A DNA stretch of 52,939 bases from an uncultured archaeon. Its GTDB lineage: Archaea; Asgardarchaeota; Lokiarchaeia; Sigyniarchaeales; SOKP01. This document shows, piece after piece, positions 39,328-48,445 of this stretch. Each line of letters begins with the position of its first letter. The stretch's first letter is position 1. The stretch lies in the NCBI GenBank assembly GCA_964388035.1, contig CAYLZE010000024.1, positions 1 through 52,939 on the forward strand, read 5' to 3'. The position numbers were made by a program, and so were the translations under genes. The notes beneath the pieces are model-generated. The model searched no databases. It was not told the DNA's origin and worked only from the letters and a program-made list of their open reading frames with translations.

Positions 39328-39885
39328 GTGGGAACAAAAGATAGGTATTTTGAAAAGCACAAATATGAACCGGCAACGGGGACTTTTGCTACGGCATTAG
39401 TATTTACTTTCGTTGGGATATTATCTTTAATTTTTAGGGCATTGAGAGTAAACTTCATCGGATTAAGCGAGTGGGGATTTTGGTTATTCATACCGGCTTT
39501 TTTCATCTTTATCGGAGCCTTCAGTCAATTATACTCCAATTCAAGACATAAAAAAATGGTAATGTCTGCATTAATGGACAGAAACATGCAGGGCACGTAC
39601 AAGTTAGAAAGTATTGGGGACGAAATAGGAATAGATCCCAAGAATATTTTGAGAGTCCTCATGGATCTACGAAATCAAGGAAAGGTACGATATCAATTTA
39701 ATTCAAATACGGGGGAAATTATTTTAGGAGAAAATATTGTATATAAGCCCGTCAACGAATATGCTACTATAGAAAAGAAGGAAGTTCCCTCCACGCCCCC
39801 AGAGAGTAAGACATATTGCGTTTATTGCGGTCAATCCTTGCCTGAAGGAGCTAAGTTCTGCGAACATTGTGGAAGTAAAGTGTGA
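39328..39885 (+). CDS. 2 TM + winged-helix-like + zinc-ribbon protein
   Basis: Two TM segments, wHTH-like middle, CVYCG...FCEHCG C-terminus. Confidence 0.75.
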   Translation: MGTKDRYFEKHKYEPATGTFATALVFTFVGILSLIFRALRVNFIGLSEWGFWLFIPAFFIFIGAFSQLYSNSRHKKMVMSALMDRNMQGTYKLESIGDEIGIDPKNILRVLMDLRNQGKVRYQFNSNTGEIILGENIVYKPVNEYATIEKKEVPSTPPESKTYCVYCGQSLPEGAKFCEHCGSKV

Positions 39886-39984: not shown

Positions 39985-42900
39985 CTATGAATAGGTTTCT
40001 TTATATTTTTGGATGATTCGATTTAAATTTTTGAGGGCTTTAATGGTGAAGATCATGAGATATTTAGAGTGAAGTTGATCATGTTTTTTAGTTATATTAT
40101 GGGCGAGCTCGTGAGCAGCGATCATTATCCACAAAATAGGAAGGGGAAATTCTCTTTCTAAAGATTCATCCACCATCATGGAATAATTAAATATTAATTG
40201 TCCCCTAAAATTGAAAGCATGTACGGGGGTGTTAAAAAGAGCTACGGATACAGTATCAGAGTTTCCATCCATCACGTCTATGATGAACTCTAATATCATT
40301 TTAAACTTTTTCAGGGATCCTATCTCTATTGACTTTACAGGTTCTTGACCGTAATAGAAAAAATTTCCTTCTTGCTGTAATGTTAGTTCGGGGATGGGAG
40401 GATTTATTTCGAGACCGCCAAATTCCGCGTTAGCAGGAAATTCCATGGTTTTAAACAATATTTTTTTATTTTTTTTGAGATCCTTTTTCAAATTCCTATC
40501 AATTTTATAATAATTGACCAGCTTTCCTTTATCGATATGGAAAGAATCCGCAATTTGTGAGTTAATTTCTTGAATTAACTCATTTTTTGACGGGGGATCC
40601 TCGATTATTATTTTTAATTTATTTTTTGAATAGGGCTTGCTATTTTTCTCACTATTTGCAGGCAATACATGAACTCCAGACCCATCTTCTTTTTTATAAA
40701 ATTCATAACTTGTTGGTTTCCAGGTAAGGGAAGGTTTTTCCCGTTTTGAACTGATCCTTGGCAAATTTTCAAAAAGATCCACGTTTTCTTCTTTGATACT
40801 ATTTTGGATCAATCCTCTATTGGGGGTCTCTCGATCCCGTATAATTAATTGAAGATCAGGAGCATTTAATTTCTTAATTTCGAGTTTATAAGTGGAAAAT
40901 CCTAAATTTGTTAAAGTATCAATTTTATTTTCTGATCCTAATAATTTTTCAATCAAGGGGCTCATGAGTTTGGATTGAGAGATATTGCCTTGAAATAAAA
41001 CGGAGGAGATGGCTCTCGATAAATCGTTTAAGAATTGGAGGGGGGCTTTTTGTTGGATGCCATTAATAATCCCAATGGTTTTGGATTCGGGATCATATTC
41101 CACGGAATTCCCGGAAATGAGAGATTTCTCGCTTTTATAAGAGAGTTCATGGTATATTTCTTCACAAGTGATGTATTGGATGTGCTTGAGTTCATTTTTC
41201 CAATCATTTTTATATTGTAAGCTTGTTTCATTAATAATAACCTCCATGTAAGGAATTAATTCCTTCAATTTGCTCTCGAGTATCCTTATATAATCGGACT
41301 TTTTAATTATGCCCTTAAAAATTATCTTTTTTTTTATTATTTCCGAAACCTTTTTTACACCTAATGCTTCCAGGAACTCCAATACCTTATTATTTACAGT
41401 TGCGATTTTTAAAGCAGAAAATTTTGCTAAATACGACTTCTCATCCGGAATATAAATCGCTTGAGGATATTCAAAAGACTTTAAATCCTCCGTTATCACG
41501 ATTTTTGATTTAGCGAGCAATTGTTTTTTTTTATCACTCAAAAACGGGTATCTATTTCCTAACGTGTTATATAACAGGAATAATCGCGTTGTCTCAATAT
41601 CTTTTTGAGCACAGTATTCCACCAAAAAATCTGCAAGATCGTCCGTAGTTAATGCTGTTTTTAGCCCAATTTTTTTGAAAAAAGTAATGGAATTGGGATA
41701 ATGAGATAATTTTAATAGCTTCTTGCTCTCTCCAAATATCACTTTTGCTTCTTTAGAGCGCGCAATTAGATGGTTTGCTCGCTCGAAATGATTAATCTCG
41801 GGCACATATATTATTTTTTCTAAAGCTAATCGTTTTTTAGCCCGCAAGCTTAATTCGTTAAAATTATTCGATTGCCCTAAGAAGGAATAAATGGTATCAA
41901 GAATCCGCACGTGTTCGGCTTTCTCGGTAGATTGGGCATTCTCTAGTTTTCTTTTTACGACCTCATCAAGTAAATAACGCGCGACATCTTCGGGTGCTGG
42001 CTTTTTACGTAATTGTAATTTATCTGCTAAATCCGTGGGGAGCTTGATCAAGGAAAGGGGCATGGATTCCCCTAATAACTCTTGTATCTCTTTACTTTTA
42101 AGGTAAACCTGATGCGGATATTCAATTCCTTTAGTACTTGGAATGCATTTCTTCTCTTTTAATAGGTTGATTAATGAATTTTTATCTTCCCGTTCCTTAT
42201 TCTGATGAATTGCATCAAATATCAGTTCAAGGCGTTTTAAAACGTGTTTAATTTGTTGGGTTTCATTTTTTTTCACGGATCGAAGATATTCCATTAAAGC
42301 TTGTTCTACCGCATTTTTCAAGTGCTTAATTCTTGGTTCCTTGTTTATTCCAAGTTTTTCGTAAAACTCCATTCCAATTTCGTTTCCTTCCGCATTCACA
42401 TCAAAATACGCAACTGAATTGGCAAAGATTTTCTGATTATATTCTGTTAAGAAATAACAATCGCGTGCTTTTACCTTGTTTCCGTTGAGAGAAGGGATTA
42501 AATCAAGGACTTTAAGTTCTTCCAAATCAGATTTGGATAATTCGTGGCTATTTTCAGAAAGAAACTTTAACACGTCCAAATCAACGATCTCTGCTCCTTT
42601 TTTTTTAATCAGGGAGAGAACATGGGAAGGTGTAAACTTCTTGGAAACCCCTAATATTTCCAGGTACTTTCGACAATTTTTATTTTTTTCAAATGCCTCG
42701 GGAAGAAACACTATTTCTTGTACCAGGGGTTTTGGTACTTCCACTTCATTAAAAAATACTTCTTCTGGGTTCTTAAATCCGCGATTTGTATAAATGATGG
42801 GATGGTTAAAATCATAAAGCCCCCTGTTATAAAAAAATGCATAATACGGGATGATCAAGTCTAGATCTTTTTTAGTAAACTTGCTTTTATTTGAAATAAA

Positions 42901-44559
42901 ATAATTCAGGATCTCATCATCGTCTAATTCTTTAAGGCCTAATTCTTGCAGGTAGATTCGAACTTTCTTATTTTCAATGAACAGATGATGAACCACTCTC
43001 TCTGGTGGATATAATCCAATAGTTTCGGTTTTGGGGAGATATAGATTCCCTGGAATAGCTTTTTGGCCCATTTCATTTGGTAAGGACTCTGCGTGGAGCA
43101 ATTTAGCTAAGTCTTTACCATTTAAACTTTTAGAATGATTTGAAAAGTAAATCCATGCGGCATGTATTTGTTCCAAGTCAATAACTTTATTTCCGCTAGC
43201 AATTTGCTGTATTAAATCACTAATTGTTAATTCCTTGACGCCTAATCTCGCCAATAATTTCTTCAGGTGTTCATTTGGTGGAGGATTTAAAATTTTGATT
43301 GCAGGGACAAAAAAGGGTCGTAATTCTTCCTCAACAACCGCTCCATCAGAGGCTTTAATCCAATTTCCATTAATATCAAGCAAATTGGCATGAAGAAACT
43401 TCTTTATTTTAGTATATATAAATTCCTTGATGTAGGATTCAAAAGGACTATAGGGTGCGTCATAATATAATGTTTTCAAGAGGGCATTAAAATACTCGGA
43501 TTTATTCTCCTCCACTTTTCGAGTAATTTTATCTTTAAAATAAAAGAGCGCTATTTCGAGCATTTCCGAGGCTTTTCTTAGAAGAAAAGAATTGAATTTT
43601 CCTGCCATGCCTTCGGTTGAGAATCCTTTTCTTGAAGTCTCGGGGATAAAATTACTAGATAATACAAACCCTAATCCAAAAGGGGTTTCGGAAGGAAAAA
43701 TTATAAAGATAGGATAATCCAATCTATTAGGATAATCATTTTCTAGAGAAAAAGCGAGATACACCGGTAATTTCGCATTTTCGATAATTTGCGATCCATG
43801 CCTTGCATATTTTTCGGGAACCAGAATGATCCTTTTAAAGACTAACCATTCACCATGATTCTCCTTGGATTTAAACCTTTTCTTTATATTTTCAATAATT
43901 TTTATTTTTAAAACTTCTACCTCCGCCCGTTTATCCTTGATTCTTTCCGAAGCTTCAATAACTTTTTTAACATGATATTCCTTTTTCGGATAGATAAGCT
44001 TAATTTCATTTAAATTAGAAGCAAACAACAGATATGGGAACTTTCGTAAATATTCATTCAATTTATCTAATTTTTTAATATCATCTGATGACAAGCGGGG
44101 ATGAAAGGGAAGATATAACCGGGTTCCATTAAAAAATTCTTCGTGATGCCGATTTATGTAAGGATAAAAATCCTCTTCTTCATGATTCATTACAAATTTC
44201 AATATGGTATTTCCCGAATGATAAATAGGCGTGTCAGAAATCGATAATACAGATAACGCGCCTAAATTCATGGCTCCCGTTTTTTCGAAATCTTTTCCTC
44301 CCAAACAAGGAGTTAATAATCGCTTGATGTCATTAGAATCAAAAGGAGTTCCATCATTTGAAACTTCTATGCCCTTAGGCATCTTTACCTCAAATTGAAT
44401 CATTTTCGCATTTGCATCGTCCGCGTTCTGAATTAATTCCCGAACCCATGTCCGAACGTCAGAATATAGGTTTTCGAAGCGATGGGTGGTCTGATAGGCG
44501 GGATATACTATGCGTTCTCTCTCGAAATTGACATTTTCAAATTCTTTTCCTAATTCCAT
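39985..44559 (-). CDS. sacsin-like GHKL ATPase / internal repeats / HExxH metallopeptidase-like protein
   Basis: RELIQNADDA, SNDGTPF, GTRLYLP at the N-terminus; AHELAHN...H...H at the C-terminus. Confidence 0.8.
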   Translation of the reverse strand: MELGKEFENVNFERERIVYPAYQTTHRFENLYSDVRTWVRELIQNADDANAKMIQFEVKMPKGIEVSNDGTPFDSNDIKRLLTPCLGGKDFEKTGAMNLGALSVLSISDTPIYHSGNTILKFVMNHEEEDFYPYINRHHEEFFNGTRLYLPFHPRLSSDDIKKLDKLNEYLRKFPYLLFASNLNEIKLIYPKKEYHVKKVIEASERIKDKRAEVEVLKIKIIENIKKRFKSKENHGEWLVFKRIILVPEKYARHGSQIIENAKLPVYLAFSLENDYPNRLDYPIFIIFPSETPFGLGFVLSSNFIPETSRKGFSTEGMAGKFNSFLLRKASEMLEIALFYFKDKITRKVEENKSEYFNALLKTLYYDAPYSPFESYIKEFIYTKIKKFLHANLLDINGNWIKASDGAVVEEELRPFFVPAIKILNPPPNEHLKKLLARLGVKELTISDLIQQIASGNKVIDLEQIHAAWIYFSNHSKSLNGKDLAKLLHAESLPNEMGQKAIPGNLYLPKTETIGLYPPERVVHHLFIENKKVRIYLQELGLKELDDDEILNYFISNKSKFTKKDLDLIIPYYAFFYNRGLYDFNHPIIYTNRGFKNPEEVFFNEVEVPKPLVQEIVFLPEAFEKNKNCRKYLEILGVSKKFTPSHVLSLIKKKGAEIVDLDVLKFLSENSHELSKSDLEELKVLDLIPSLNGNKVKARDCYFLTEYNQKIFANSVAYFDVNAEGNEIGMEFYEKLGINKEPRIKHLKNAVEQALMEYLRSVKKNETQQIKHVLKRLELIFDAIHQNKEREDKNSLINLLKEKKCIPSTKGIEYPHQVYLKSKEIQELLGESMPLSLIKLPTDLADKLQLRKKPAPEDVARYLLDEVVKRKLENAQSTEKAEHVRILDTIYSFLGQSNNFNELSLRAKKRLALEKIIYVPEINHFERANHLIARSKEAKVIFGESKKLLKLSHYPNSITFFKKIGLKTALTTDDLADFLVEYCAQKDIETTRLFLLYNTLGNRYPFLSDKKKQLLAKSKIVITEDLKSFEYPQAIYIPDEKSYLAKFSALKIATVNNKVLEFLEALGVKKVSEIIKKKIIFKGIIKKSDYIRILESKLKELIPYMEVIINETSLQYKNDWKNELKHIQYITCEEIYHELSYKSEKSLISGNSVEYDPESKTIGIINGIQQKAPLQFLNDLSRAISSVLFQGNISQSKLMSPLIEKLLGSENKIDTLTNLGFSTYKLEIKKLNAPDLQLIIRDRETPNRGLIQNSIKEENVDLFENLPRISSKREKPSLTWKPTSYEFYKKEDGSGVHVLPANSEKNSKPYSKNKLKIIIEDPPSKNELIQEINSQIADSFHIDKGKLVNYYKIDRNLKKDLKKNKKILFKTMEFPANAEFGGLEINPPIPELTLQQEGNFFYYGQEPVKSIEIGSLKKFKMILEFIIDVMDGNSDTVSVALFNTPVHAFNFRGQLIFNYSMMVDESLEREFPLPILWIMIAAHELAHNITKKHDQLHSKYLMIFTIKALKNLNRIIQKYKETYS

Positions 44560-44728: not shown

Positions 44729-45448
44729 TTATTGCCTAATTCCCAACCAAAGAAACACTACAGAGAATATAGTACCTATTCGAATAAAGAAGGTAATGAT
44801 GCCAGGATCTATCAGCGCATCTAAAGCTCCACATATGATGAAGAGGAACCATCCTAAAGATAAATAGGAGAATTTTCTCCGGATCATTCCTGTAGATTGG
44901 ATACTTTTGTTCAAAAAGCCAAACCCGTTAAAAATCAGTCCTGATGTTAAAAACACGATCATCAGTATGAATATAATGGAAGAAAGGGAAACCGATGTAT
45001 TCAATAAAGCCGTTCCTTGGGGAAGGGGGTTAGGGTAAACAAATATTGCTTCGGGATTTGTCAAGGAAAATACGAATAAAATTATTTCAAAAATTACTAC
45101 TAATGCCCCATAAATGATTAAAATGAGTATTTTTTTAGTTGGCGCCAACAATTCTGCTCCCGTATAAAGACCAAAAAGAGTCACGGGTCCTGTCCATATA
45201 TAACTTAATAGCCCATATAACCAATACGGTTCTAAATTGGTTCCTGTAATTAAAATCACCATGAAATCTGTTGCCGGACCTAATAGAACGTATCCTATGC
45301 TAATAATGCATAATCCCGTAATTCCTAGCAATTTTGCTTTTAGTTTTACTGCAGTGAGGAGTGCATAAATACCAAAAATGGTTGCTATAATTACAACTAT
45401 GAAAGCGGTACCCCCATCTAACCATCCTAATTGACTTAACTCCGCCAT
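44729..45448 (-). CDS. hypothetical 7-TM membrane protein
   Basis: Seven hydrophobic segments in 239 aa, no soluble domain. Confidence 0.7.
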   Translation of the reverse strand: MAELSQLGWLDGGTAFIVVIIATIFGIYALLTAVKLKAKLLGITGLCIISIGYVLLGPATDFMVILITGTNLEPYWLYGLLSYIWTGPVTLFGLYTGAELLAPTKKILILIIYGALVVIFEIILFVFSLTNPEAIFVYPNPLPQGTALLNTSVSLSSIIFILMIVFLTSGLIFNGFGFLNKSIQSTGMIRRKFSYLSLGWFLFIICGALDALIDPGIITFFIRIGTIFSVVFLWLGIRQ

Positions 45449-45699: not shown

Positions 45700-46248
45700 T
45701 CAAATACGGGCATAAAAAAAAGCAGAAAGAGAATTCTTACCAGAAGCAAGAGTCAATTCTTGCTTAAATTCTAATGATTCAAAAAAAGAATTCAATTCAT
45801 ACCTAAAAGAAATTACAATAGCTCTTTTTTTGGCTGTTCTTAATACATGGTTTAAAAAGGCGTGCATGGGAGGATACGAATAAATATAAATGAAGTTATA
45901 TTTGCTTAAATCTTGTTTAAACAAATCTGCTTTTTTAAATTCCATTTTCCGCACGAGTTTTCGGGGTATTTTGCTAGAATTTTTAAACTCCTTTATTTTT
46001 TGCTGAGATAATTGAAAAAAATGATCATCCAGTTCTATTCCCACTGATCTTATCTTATATTTCAAAGCGGCATGGATAACAACTCTCCCGTCCCCCGATC
46101 CTAAATCGATTAACTTTTGTTTAGCCCCTTTTTTCAGACCAAAATCTTGTTCCAAAACACGGAAAATTTTATCGATATAATCCCGATCTGTTTCCAAGTA
46201 AGGAAGCACTAATTTAGAAGAAATGGTGTAAAAATTATTCTCGTTCAT
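45700..46248 (-). CDS. class I SAM-dependent methyltransferase (FAM173/protein-lysine MTase-like)
   Basis: LPYLET, LIDLGSGDGRVV, GIEL, ADLF. Confidence 0.85.
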   Translation of the reverse strand: MNENNFYTISSKLVLPYLETDRDYIDKIFRVLEQDFGLKKGAKQKLIDLGSGDGRVVIHAALKYKIRSVGIELDDHFFQLSQQKIKEFKNSSKIPRKLVRKMEFKKADLFKQDLSKYNFIYIYSYPPMHAFLNHVLRTAKKRAIVISFRYELNSFFESLEFKQELTLASGKNSLSAFFYARI

Positions 46249-46476: not shown

Positions 46477-47025
46477 GTGAAACTGATACATATGATTGAC
46501 AGAAAGTTATACGAGATACTCAATCGAGCGTTAGGCGAAACTTCGATTAAAAATTACTCCTCAGAATTTTCGTCTCGGATCATTGTTCAAAAGGTATTAT
46601 ACCTATTAACTCACGGGATTTCTGCACCTAATGTAAGCTTGCCCTATAAATGGGAATTCTATTTACACGGTCCTTATTCTTCAGATATTGCTCAAATGCT
46701 TCATCACATGAATGATGTAAGGGATGAAATCTCCCATAAACAGGTGGATTTAACTAAGAAGGATCTCATGAGTTTAGAGAATTTCCGTCAATTTAGAGAA
46801 CAATTAATGTCTTTAAGAGAAGAGGAAAGAGAACTAAGCAATTTACCTAAGGCGGAATTATTTGAAATTTTAGGTACTTTAGTATATTTAGCAGGACAAC
46901 TTGAAAAAGATGAAATTAAAATTCGAGCAAAATTTAAAGCTTTCAAGCCATCATTAATTCAAAAATTAACTGAGAATGCTTTTTCTATGCTATACCAACT
47001 ATTAAATGAGTTTGGATACATTTAA
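46477..47025 (+). CDS. YwgA/SocA(DUF4065)-like winged-helix protein
   Basis: R...QKVLYL...W.FYLHGPYS motif. Confidence 0.65.
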   Translation: MKLIHMIDRKLYEILNRALGETSIKNYSSEFSSRIIVQKVLYLLTHGISAPNVSLPYKWEFYLHGPYSSDIAQMLHHMNDVRDEISHKQVDLTKKDLMSLENFRQFREQLMSLREEERELSNLPKAELFEILGTLVYLAGQLEKDEIKIRAKFKAFKPSLIQKLTENAFSMLYQLLNEFGYI

Positions 47026-48445
47026 GCACCTATTAAAAATACGCTTTAAAATCATGAAGACATTAACGGGATTACCCGCAAAAAAGTATATTTTAGACCC
47101 GATCCACGGACCCATTCCCATTACGGCACTTGAATATGGGATCATTTCTACTCCTCTTTTTCAGAGACTTAGAAACATCACGCAGCTGAGTCAAACTCAC
47201 CTCGTTTATCCTGGAGCCCTCCATAACAGGTTTCAGCATTCCTTGGGAACGATGTTTGTCATGGATAAATTACTCAACACATTGAGGGAACGAGAACAAC
47301 TACCTGTTGATACTTCTAAGCAGGAACTCATTATAAATATAATGAGGTTGGCTGCATTGTTGCATGATTGCGGTCATTTACCCTTCTCCCATACTTTTGA
47401 AAATGAAAAAGAGCAAAGAGACCATGAAGTTTTCGCAAAGTGGATCATAGAGACCAGTGAAATAAAAGAAAAGGTCGAAGAGCACGGTATACCTTCAGAA
47501 ACCATTAGTGGAATAATTACGGGAGAAATTAATATAAAGGATGAGCATTTTAGCGAGCTCACAGAATTGTTACCTTTATTAAGTTCTAACGCAGATTGCG
47601 ATCGAATGGATTACTTGTTAAGAGATTCTTACTTTACGGGGGTCCCCTATGGAAAATATGATATTGATCGCATTACAAATTTTGTTTCTCTTGACAATCG
47701 GCAAATATGTTTTTTGGATAAAGCTCAAGACGCCTTAGAAGATTTCTTGTTTTCCCGGTATCAAATGTATAAAATTGTCTACATTCATAAAACCGTGATA
47801 GGATATCAGCTCTTATTACTTAAAATTCATGAAAAATATATCAAAAAATATCAGGACAAAATAAACCTCCCTTTCTTTCTTCCTAATGAGGATGACTTTA
47901 AAAAAGCAAATAATGAATGGTATAATGATAAATTTTTTAATCTTACTGAAAGAGATTTCTTTACAAGTATCAATTTACTCTTAAAATCAGAAGTCATGTC
48001 TTCAGATGAAAAAAATGATTTGAAAAACATGCAAGATAGGTTTATTTATAGAAATCCAATCAAAAATTGTTACATGTTTGATAATTTAGCTACCATGTCC
48101 CAAACCGAATATTGTGATAAAGAGTCAGAATGTTTTGAAGAATTATTAAGAACTCATCCCGAGATCATTGCTCATTGGTCCTTCTTAAGATATAACCCTA
48201 GCGAACCAATTCAAATCGCAGATCCTATTCTTAAAGAAGAACATGAAGATCAACAAGATCCTAAATTTATACGAATTTTTGATAGGAAAAATAATAGGAT
48301 CGAACTTCTACAAAATAGAGCAAATTCATTTATAAACTCGCTCGCAAGTCATCACAGGATTCTCATTTGCTATTATCATAAACAACCAGAAGCTCAAGAT
48401 ATTATTCGCAATTTAGCCCTTAAGTTAATATCTAATGAAATATAA
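47006..48445 (+). CDS. HD-domain dNTP triphosphohydrolase-like protein (SAMHD1/YwfO family)
   Basis: DPIHG, FQRLR.ITQL, YPGA.H.RF.HSLG, LLHDCGHLPFSH, D.DRMDYLLRD, MY..VY.HK. Confidence 0.9.
   Translation: MSLDTFKHLLKIRFKIMKTLTGLPAKKYILDPIHGPIPITALEYGIISTPLFQRLRNITQLSQTHLVYPGALHNRFQHSLGTMFVMDKLLNTLREREQLPVDTSKQELIINIMRLAALLHDCGHLPFSHTFENEKEQRDHEVFAKWIIETSEIKEKVEEHGIPSETISGIITGEINIKDEHFSELTELLPLLSSNADCDRMDYLLRDSYFTGVPYGKYDIDRITNFVSLDNRQICFLDKAQDALEDFLFSRYQMYKIVYIHKTVIGYQLLLLKIHEKYIKKYQDKINLPFFLPNEDDFKKANNEWYNDKFFNLTERDFFTSINLLLKSEVMSSDEKNDLKNMQDRFIYRNPIKNCYMFDNLATMSQTEYCDKESECFEELLRTHPEIIAHWSFLRYNPSEPIQIADPILKEEHEDQQDPKFIRIFDRKNNRIELLQNRANSFINSLASHHRILICYYHKQPEAQDIIRNLALKLISNEI

Follow-up and report, generated by a model that had tools for sequence, protein, structure and literature searches.

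A Tiamat-like ATPase from an Asgard archaeon with an intact, apparently active Wss1-like protease domain at its C terminus

We analyzed a 52,939-nucleotide stretch of DNA (the window; contig CAYLZE010000024.1 of assembly GCA_964388035.1) from an uncultured Asgard archaeon of the order Sigyniarchaeales. On its minus strand, at 39985..44559, an open reading frame (ORF) with an ATG start encodes a protein of 1524 amino acids (1524 codons plus the stop). The gene is present in a single copy in its 5.5-Mb genome. An earlier note on this DNA had described the product as a sacsin-like ATPase with about seven repeats of ~100 amino acids and a terminal HExxH domain, and our analysis supports all three parts of that description. 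By its sequence, the protein also belongs to the Tiamat/Tiamat-like superfamily, a membership absent from the earlier note. What is new here is the combination of a Tiamat-like architecture with a terminal Wss1-like protease domain whose site is intact, a combination also found in eukaryotic DUF3684 proteins. Within the sacsin/Tiamat branch of GHKL ATPases, the protein is probably a Tiamat-like form in which a zinc protease serves as the effector instead of a nuclease.

The superfamily is described in two preprints of 1 October 2026 (bioRxiv 10.64898/2026.09.30.754977 and 10.64898/2026.09.30.755639), each of which was available in part. According to the available text, Tiamat, plant NO VEIN (linked to Tiamat in 10.64898/2026.09.30.755639), and sacsin have only recently been united in a single ancient family of ATPases, at whose center lies a metalloprotease-like fold reported to have no catalytic activity. 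The Tiamat core is given there as tetratricopeptide repeat (TPR)-like repeats, "Fold B," and a metalloprotease fold that resembles Wss1 and "lacks the canonical HExxH" (10.64898/2026.09.30.754977). The same preprint lists Tiamat-like types with the nuclease swapped or absent. Its available text does not contain the word "Asgard," and the available parts of the two preprints describe no intact-site form of the Wss1-like fold. In the Asgard protein and the eukaryotic proteins that resemble it, all catalytic residues are retained and a nuclease is absent. Therefore, they are the first natural candidates for an ATP-controlled protease form of the family, and they suggest what its ancestral effector was.

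A predicted zincin domain with an intact metal site

From the N terminus, the protein consists of a GHKL ATPase head, a transducer-like region, seven repeats, a conserved core, a variable linker, and the terminal zincin. The terminal domain comprises 165 amino acids (residues 1360 to 1524; 39988..40482, minus strand). Its AlphaFold2 (AF2) model had a predicted local distance difference test (pLDDT) score of 88.4 and a predicted template modeling (pTM) score of 0.86. The best match of the model in the PDB was Wss1 (5xbn; 109 residues aligned, root mean square deviation of 3.5, 10% identity), with a Z of 8.0, a level at which a match can reflect merely a shared arrangement. After Wss1, nearly all of the next structure matches were zincins, namely YbeY, M48, and minigluzincins (all three with a Z of 5 to 7) and M1 aminopeptidases. 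Foldseek matched the domain to Wss1 with an E value of 0.065 and a probability of 0.99, and the top shape match in the ESM Atlas was to eukaryotic DUF3684 clusters (template modeling score, 0.74). The model and its matches place the domain in the zincin superfamily.

The active-site motif, HELAHNITKKHDQLHSKY (residues 1483 to 1500; 40060..40113, minus strand), reads HExxHx5H and then His-Ser-x-Tyr. In the model, HExxH lies on an active-site helix (114 to 127) that follows strands 89 to 92 and 95 to 99, and a pair of edge strands is formed from AFNFRGQLIFN; AFNFRGQLIFNY is found at residues ~1452 to 1463. Six full-length Asgard clade members (38 to 48% identity) all share H1483, E1484, H1487, H1493, and H1497, and this H-E-H-H-H set is also retained in eukaryotic homologues at ~16% identity. 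That the metal site is strictly conserved in Asgard and eukaryotic proteins alike argues that catalysis matters, and the domain is apparently an active Wss1-type zinc protease. Its small zincin fold and the HExxHx5H spacing of its metal site are also those of the Wss1/WLM and SprT/Spartan DNA-protein cross-link proteases. Unlike them, it is fused to a 1350-residue ATPase-repeat body.

Some observations weigh against an active protease, in addition to the limit on the Wss1 match given above. No significant Pfam peptidase family was found on the terminal domain, and neither WLM nor SprT of Pfam matched it. A sequence search of the PDB with the domain returned marginal adamalysin matches alone (E value of 0.08, in the HExxHxxGxxH region). 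The equivalent fold in true Tiamats is catalytically dead according to the available text of 10.64898/2026.09.30.754977, and by analogy a noncatalytic role for the terminal zincin is possible in principle. A predicted homodimer of the domain scored 0.15, which is evidence neither way.

We found no match to the NOV_C nuclease (PF13020) in the 1524-amino-acid protein, and only 24 residues lie beyond the last conserved histidine, H1497. Because the C-terminal PD-(D/E)xK nuclease (NOV_C/DUF3883, PF13020) is missing, we call the protein Tiamat-like and not a Tiamat.

Relatives that share the terminal domain

A terminal-domain profile, run against 1.8 billion representative proteins, found 90, which we grouped by motif and alignment. 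Three groups carry the domain. The site is intact in a small Asgard clade and in eukaryotic DUF3684 proteins, and it is degenerate in a set of prokaryotic relatives that read RELAY for HELAH (the RELAY group). Tiamats with the NOV_C nuclease (PF13020) were not retrieved by this search. Judged by sequence, the Asgard clade, the eukaryotic proteins, and these relatives, which include proteins from defense islands (see below), are one assemblage with a common terminal domain.

The Asgard clade reads HELAHNxxxxHxxxHS, and the names of its sources are Promethearchaeota, Lokiarchaeota, and "Hermodarchaeota." Members of the RELAY group are prokaryotic proteins of 1340 to 1455 amino acids that have lost both histidines of the active-site helix. 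The eukaryotic proteins are 1327 to 2067 amino acids long, match Pfam DUF3684 (PF12449) with E values down to 1.8e-291, and have an intact HELAHNxxxxH a few residues from the C terminus. They come from Leotiomycete fungi (Monilinia, Sclerotinia, Golovinomyces, and Pseudogymnoascus), the glomeromycete Acaulospora, a yeast-like genome, and the diatom Nitzschia. One Golovinomyces database entry is labeled "putative neutral zinc metallopeptidase." In the yeast-like genome, the DUF3684 gene is flanked by TRAPPC9, Med6, and genes of the proteasome. A joint terminal profile scored the eukaryotic members at 1e-41 to 1e-17.

The earlier note had linked the N-terminal ATPase and the tail to a largely fungal DUF3684 family, and this link was correct. 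The eukaryotic proteins have the ATPase, DUF3684, and terminal HELAHNxxxxH in the same order. At 1485 to 1860 amino acids, the examples compared are also similar in size to the Asgard protein, and they share AFNxxGxLxFN and HELAHNxxxxHxxxHxxY with it, although overall identity is ~16%. The note had named, as the finding that would tell against it, closest homologues scattered among bacteria together with no full-length eukaryotic match of this architecture. Because full-length eukaryotic proteins share the architecture, that objection falls away. Pfam DUF3684 itself matches two of the seven Asgard clade members (best E value, 4e-14), and the 1524-amino-acid protein is below its threshold.

In the RELAY relatives the fold persists although the site is gone, so the fold must also have a noncatalytic use, which suggests that the dead fold of Tiamat derived from an active one. 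The same observation can be read differently. If the fold is useful without catalysis in this sister group, and is inactive in Tiamats as the available text of 10.64898/2026.09.30.754977 reports, then the zincin of the Asgard protein might be a binding module, and the protein might act only as an ATPase scaffold or a sensor, together with unlinked partners. We regard this as improbable. Neither the Asgard clade nor the deeply diverged eukaryotic family shows any change in the three metal-binding histidines, the catalytic glutamate, or the fourth histidine, and invariance of such depth is hard to explain without a metal site.

Two further loci came to light among the homologues. In a deltaproteobacterial metagenome-assembled genome (L020 5899-11247), the homologous region is split into three ORFs of 1025, 237, and 489 amino acids, which points either to gene breakage or to a faulty assembly. 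A search of genome contigs, in which five loci were confirmed, found a Bathyarchaeia locus; because its tail is HNH-like, it belongs to another Tiamat-like type.

ATPase head, repeats, and comparison with Tiamat

The sacsin-type GHKL (Bergerat-fold) ATPase domain (residues ~30 to 200; 43960..44472, minus strand) matched NCBIfam NF047352 above the cutoff (55.1 bits versus 50; E value of 8e-15), and the motifs quoted in the earlier note are all present. Pfam SACS (PF25794) matches all seven clade members; on the 1524-amino-acid protein it scored 25.8, with a threshold of 32.8. There was also a weak match of the head to Pfam HATPase_c and a faint one to the Hsp90 N domain. The GHKL signature is complete. 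The N-box (ExxxNxxD) is ELIQNADD at residues 41 to 48 (44416..44439, minus strand), with catalytic Glu E41 and Mg-binding Asn N45. DxG is D69-G70 (NDG at 68 to 70, in NDGTPF at residues 68 to 73), and the glycine-rich ATP lid has G95 and G100 (in KTGAMNLGALS at residues 93 to 103). Across 21 diverse relatives at ~16% identity, E41, Q44, N45, D48, D69-G70, G95, G100, and R310 are invariant. The sequence therefore identifies the N terminus as a sacsin-type GHKL ATPase in which all the residues for nucleotide binding and hydrolysis are present. This N terminus matches the start of the six full-length homologues (38 to 48% identity).

The head is of the same type as those of sacsin (SACS) and Hsp90. 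However, sacsin has three such heads and the Asgard protein has one, without the J, HEPN, and UBL domains. The middle and C-terminal domains of Hsp90 are also missing from it.

The transducer-like region (residues ~201 to 344; 43528..43959, minus strand) contains an invariant PETSRKG motif, which includes R310, and an invariant N323. Like the arginine to which this function is ascribed in Hsp90 and Tiamat, R310 might be a gamma-phosphate sensor. Most of the region is covered by the match to PDLC03968, one of two PADLOC models of TmtA that found the protein (4e-20 over residues 24 to 339). The other, PDLC03969, matched with 6e-35 over residues 663 to 1249.

Seven tandem repeats of ~100 amino acids follow (residues 345 to 1075; 41335..43527, minus strand), each closing with LxxLG[VIL]. 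The units are residues 345 to 448, 449 to 549, 550 to 645, 646 to 745, 746 to 858, 859 to 973, and 974 to 1075. Using the LxxLG[VIL] motifs as anchors, we divided the clade alignment into units and compared these profile to profile with hhalign. Units matched one another in register (units 4 and 5, P of 3e-10; units 3 and 4, 8e-9; units 4 and 6, 1e-7; units 2 and 4, 4e-6), and units 2 and 7 matched over 94 columns (3e-5). Unit 1 was the weakest (2e-4 with unit 4). Controls had P values of at least 0.03 for shuffled columns and at least 0.007 for the ATPase domain. The in-register matches connect all seven units. The number of repeats varies within the Asgard clade, with three in some members and seven in others. 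Two short forms of ~1055 amino acids (P0012 and P0013; L022 7001-10180) have no equivalent of residues ~481 to 876, or about four repeats, and also lack most of the linker. They retain the ATPase head and the intact protease.

The conserved region after the repeats (residues 1076 to 1229; 40873..41334, minus strand) had no likeness to the repeat units in the profile comparison. Together with repeats 4 to 7, it matches the Tiamat core (PDLC03969). We considered whether it might be a second, degenerate zincin and rejected this, since there was no profile similarity. The linker (residues 1230 to 1359; 40483..40872, minus strand) is rich in K, N, S, and E, is poorly conserved, and varies in length among homologues (alignment columns 1241 to 1375). 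It is presumed from these sequence features to be a flexible tether.

Tiamat (TmtA) is a single-gene anti-phage system of Bacillus cereus. Like the Asgard protein, it has a sacsin-type GHKL head and transducer and a matching core. As far as the available text of 10.64898/2026.09.30.754977 goes, the two are also alike in their repeated modules, Wss1-like metalloprotease fold, and flexibly tethered effector, and the variable linker of the Asgard protein is comparable to the disordered tether described there for Tiamat's effector. They differ in that the Wss1-like fold of the Asgard protein is terminal and keeps HExxHx5H, which the fold of Tiamat reportedly does not. By InterPro-style annotation, the Asgard protein would be classed as "Type II-A" (ATPase and DUF3684 only) in the scheme given in the available part of that preprint.

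Relationship of the Asgard clade to the eukaryotic family

The earlier note had raised the possibility of an unrecognized eukaryote-signature protein, to be examined through a phylogeny of Asgard-eukaryote sisterhood. For one tree (LG+F+G4), we took off the terminal domain and aligned 53 proteins with E-INS-i over 979 columns. Asgard and eukaryotic proteins each formed a clade with 100/100 support. A split of Asgard plus eukaryotic proteins from all other prokaryotic Tiamat/Tiamat-like proteins had support of 98 in the Shimodaira-Hasegawa-like approximate likelihood ratio test (SH-aLRT) and 94 in the ultrafast bootstrap (UFBoot). Under LG+C20+F+G4 with posterior mean site frequencies (PMSF), its SH-aLRT was 86.8. 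A second tree covered only the ATPase region, aligned with L-INS-i; this set, which also took in sacsin as an outgroup, NO VEIN, and remote prokaryotic members, had 66 proteins and 278 columns. The same split was found again (SH-aLRT/UFBoot, 91.8/80). In the approximately unbiased (AU) test, a grouping of the Asgard clade with the whole RELAY group was rejected (P of 0.0003).

However, other results point to a prokaryotic sister. With an FFT-NS-2 alignment, which is cruder and faster, FastTree and IQ-TREE both grouped the Asgard clade with prokaryotic relatives, and the conflicting split, eukaryotes plus one Tiamat group versus Asgard plus other prokaryotes, had an SH-aLRT of 99.5. The AU test kept a grouping of the Asgard clade with the two nearest RELAY members, P0025 and P0042 (P of 0.31). 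A terminal profile made from Asgard sequences only scored the RELAY group (1e-10 to 1e-7) above the eukaryotes (1e-6 to 1e-3). The motif MGGNPxTV is common to the Asgard clade and the RELAY group only; the eukaryotic proteins are without it. Finally, the gene is rare among Asgard genomes, with an ortholog in 4 of the 400 species genomes of the phylum. Because the stems of both candidate sisters are long, long-branch attraction is a genuine concern. The Asgard-eukaryote grouping suggested by the earlier note appears on the E-INS-i and L-INS-i alignments and is contradicted on FFT-NS-2, and the rarity of the gene does not favor a signature protein. On these sequence comparisons, sisterhood is possible, with the balance roughly even. 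The outcome depends on the alignment, and the better alignments favor it.

It is an even call whether the Asgard clade is instead a patchily transferred Tiamat-like branch that has retained the ancestral site, with its grouping with eukaryotes an artifact of long branches or alignment. A fuller evolutionary scenario is more doubtful, and we put it forward tentatively. In it, the Asgard clade would be the closest prokaryotic kin of the eukaryotic DUF3684 family, and the protein would be an unlisted eukaryotic signature protein, either from an archaeal ancestor or exchanged with stem eukaryotes. The ancestral Tiamat-type machine would have been an ATP-gated Wss1-like protease, the ancestor of the "dead" fold in Tiamat and NO VEIN. 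In no tree was the Asgard clade nested inside the eukaryotes, and this speaks against a recent eukaryote-to-archaea transfer. If the Asgard-eukaryote link is true, a large protein of immunity or quality-control type would join the genes that connect Asgard archaea and eukaryotes, and the unstudied fungal DUF3684 proteins would gain a testable function.

We also ruled out eukaryotic contamination of the window. Its guanine-plus-cytosine content is even, and the homologue P0002 is on a 793-kb Promethearchaeota contig with Asgard-type small GTPases. A few kilobases from P0002 (L001 15354-19254), there are a Roadblock/LC7 gene and two small GTPase genes of Arf/Ras/Roc type. These are typical eukaryote-like genes of Asgard archaea and thereby confirm the host lineage of P0002.

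Possible mechanism and role

The architecture suggests how a Tiamat-like protein with a protease effector might work. As in other GHKL proteins, binding of ATP would dimerize the heads and shut the clamp. The repeat arms would capture a ligand, which could be a protein or a nucleoprotein, and the flexibly tethered protease would then cut the captured substrate or a downstream target. The whole would be an ATP-gated, tethered protease. Since the targets of Wss1-type proteases are DNA-bound proteins and that of Tiamat is DNA, a DNA-associated protein substrate is an attractive guess by analogy.

A role in conflict, as a defense against viruses and mobile elements like that of Tiamat, is one we lean toward at a little short of even confidence. 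We examined the gene contexts of two RELAY relatives, and both are clear defense islands. P0023 (L006 1-4000, 12969-13769) is beside a NERD protein, a ResIII/DEAD helicase, and an N6/N4 DNA methyltransferase. Its NERD and helicase neighbors resemble the NERD-helicase partnership that the available text of 10.64898/2026.09.30.754977 describes for some Tiamats. P0025 (L021, GCA_024256265.1) is in a dense island with QueC and TGT, HD-CE, HEPN_Swt1, SIR2_2, and a second HD-CE/HATPase_c_3 protein. The distribution of the gene leans the same way. Apart from the source genome, the ortholog occurs in three species, all from a second genus within that family, and the clade members are found in three different neighborhoods.

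The Asgard copies themselves are not in such islands. They occupy at least three neighborhoods, all housekeeping in character, and sit among metabolic and housekeeping genes. Three genomes share a synteny of HcyBio/CBS, HTH-CBS, the ATPase gene, and EamA, which looks like stable chromosomal inheritance and not like a defense island. No partner gene is conserved across all copies, and this too counts against the conflict role. Near the gene in the window, only weak defense-like matches were found (a DarG-C-like and HD/dGTPase-like pair and a small methyltransferase). Thus, when the earlier note offered a defense effector as one option, it was right about the close relatives, which are in defense islands, but the Asgard copies lie outside them.

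These surroundings fit better with a housekeeping protein, in which a sacsin-like chaperone joined to a Wss1-like protease would clear damaged proteins or DNA-protein adducts and be inherited vertically. Wss1, the closest solved fold, repairs DNA-protein cross-links, and the eukaryotic homologues are among ordinary nuclear genes. We nevertheless consider such a function somewhat less likely than a role in conflict. A housekeeping gene should not be absent, as this one is, from 396 of 400 genomes in the phylum, among them a same-genus genome (G162) that is 96% complete. The nearest prokaryotic relatives are in defense islands, and a change in repeat number between three and seven within the clade is what would be expected of a fast-evolving sensor. 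In short, the patchy occurrence fits a conflict gene, whereas the neighborhoods do not.

Neighboring genes

We considered a conserved operon partner and rejected it, because the neighbors differ among clade members. One gene recurs in two genomes. It encodes a protein of ~185 amino acids with a C-terminal zinc ribbon and is convergent to the ATPase gene, at 39328-39885 (plus strand) in the window and at L023 11645-12199 beside the homologue P0004. It is the sole neighbor shared between these two loci. EamA recurs in three other genomes, and an Rce1-like neighbor was seen at two loci.

Directly upstream of the ATPase gene, on the same strand and after a gap of 170 bp, is a 239-amino-acid ORF (44729-45448, minus strand). 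It had no Pfam or PADLOC match and was not seen beside homologues. Two genes upstream of the ATPase gene (45700-46248, minus strand) is a 182-amino-acid S-adenosylmethionine (SAM) methyltransferase, with matches that are DOT1-like (8.8e-10) and PADLOC mad2-like (1.9e-11). Farther along, at 46477-48445 (plus strand), a 182-amino-acid protein matches the C-terminal part of PADLOC DarG (4e-8). Its gene overlaps the start of a 479-amino-acid HD-domain gene with a weak dGTPase-like match (4e-6). From these matches, the pair may be a small module of nucleotide-depletion or toxin-antitoxin type.

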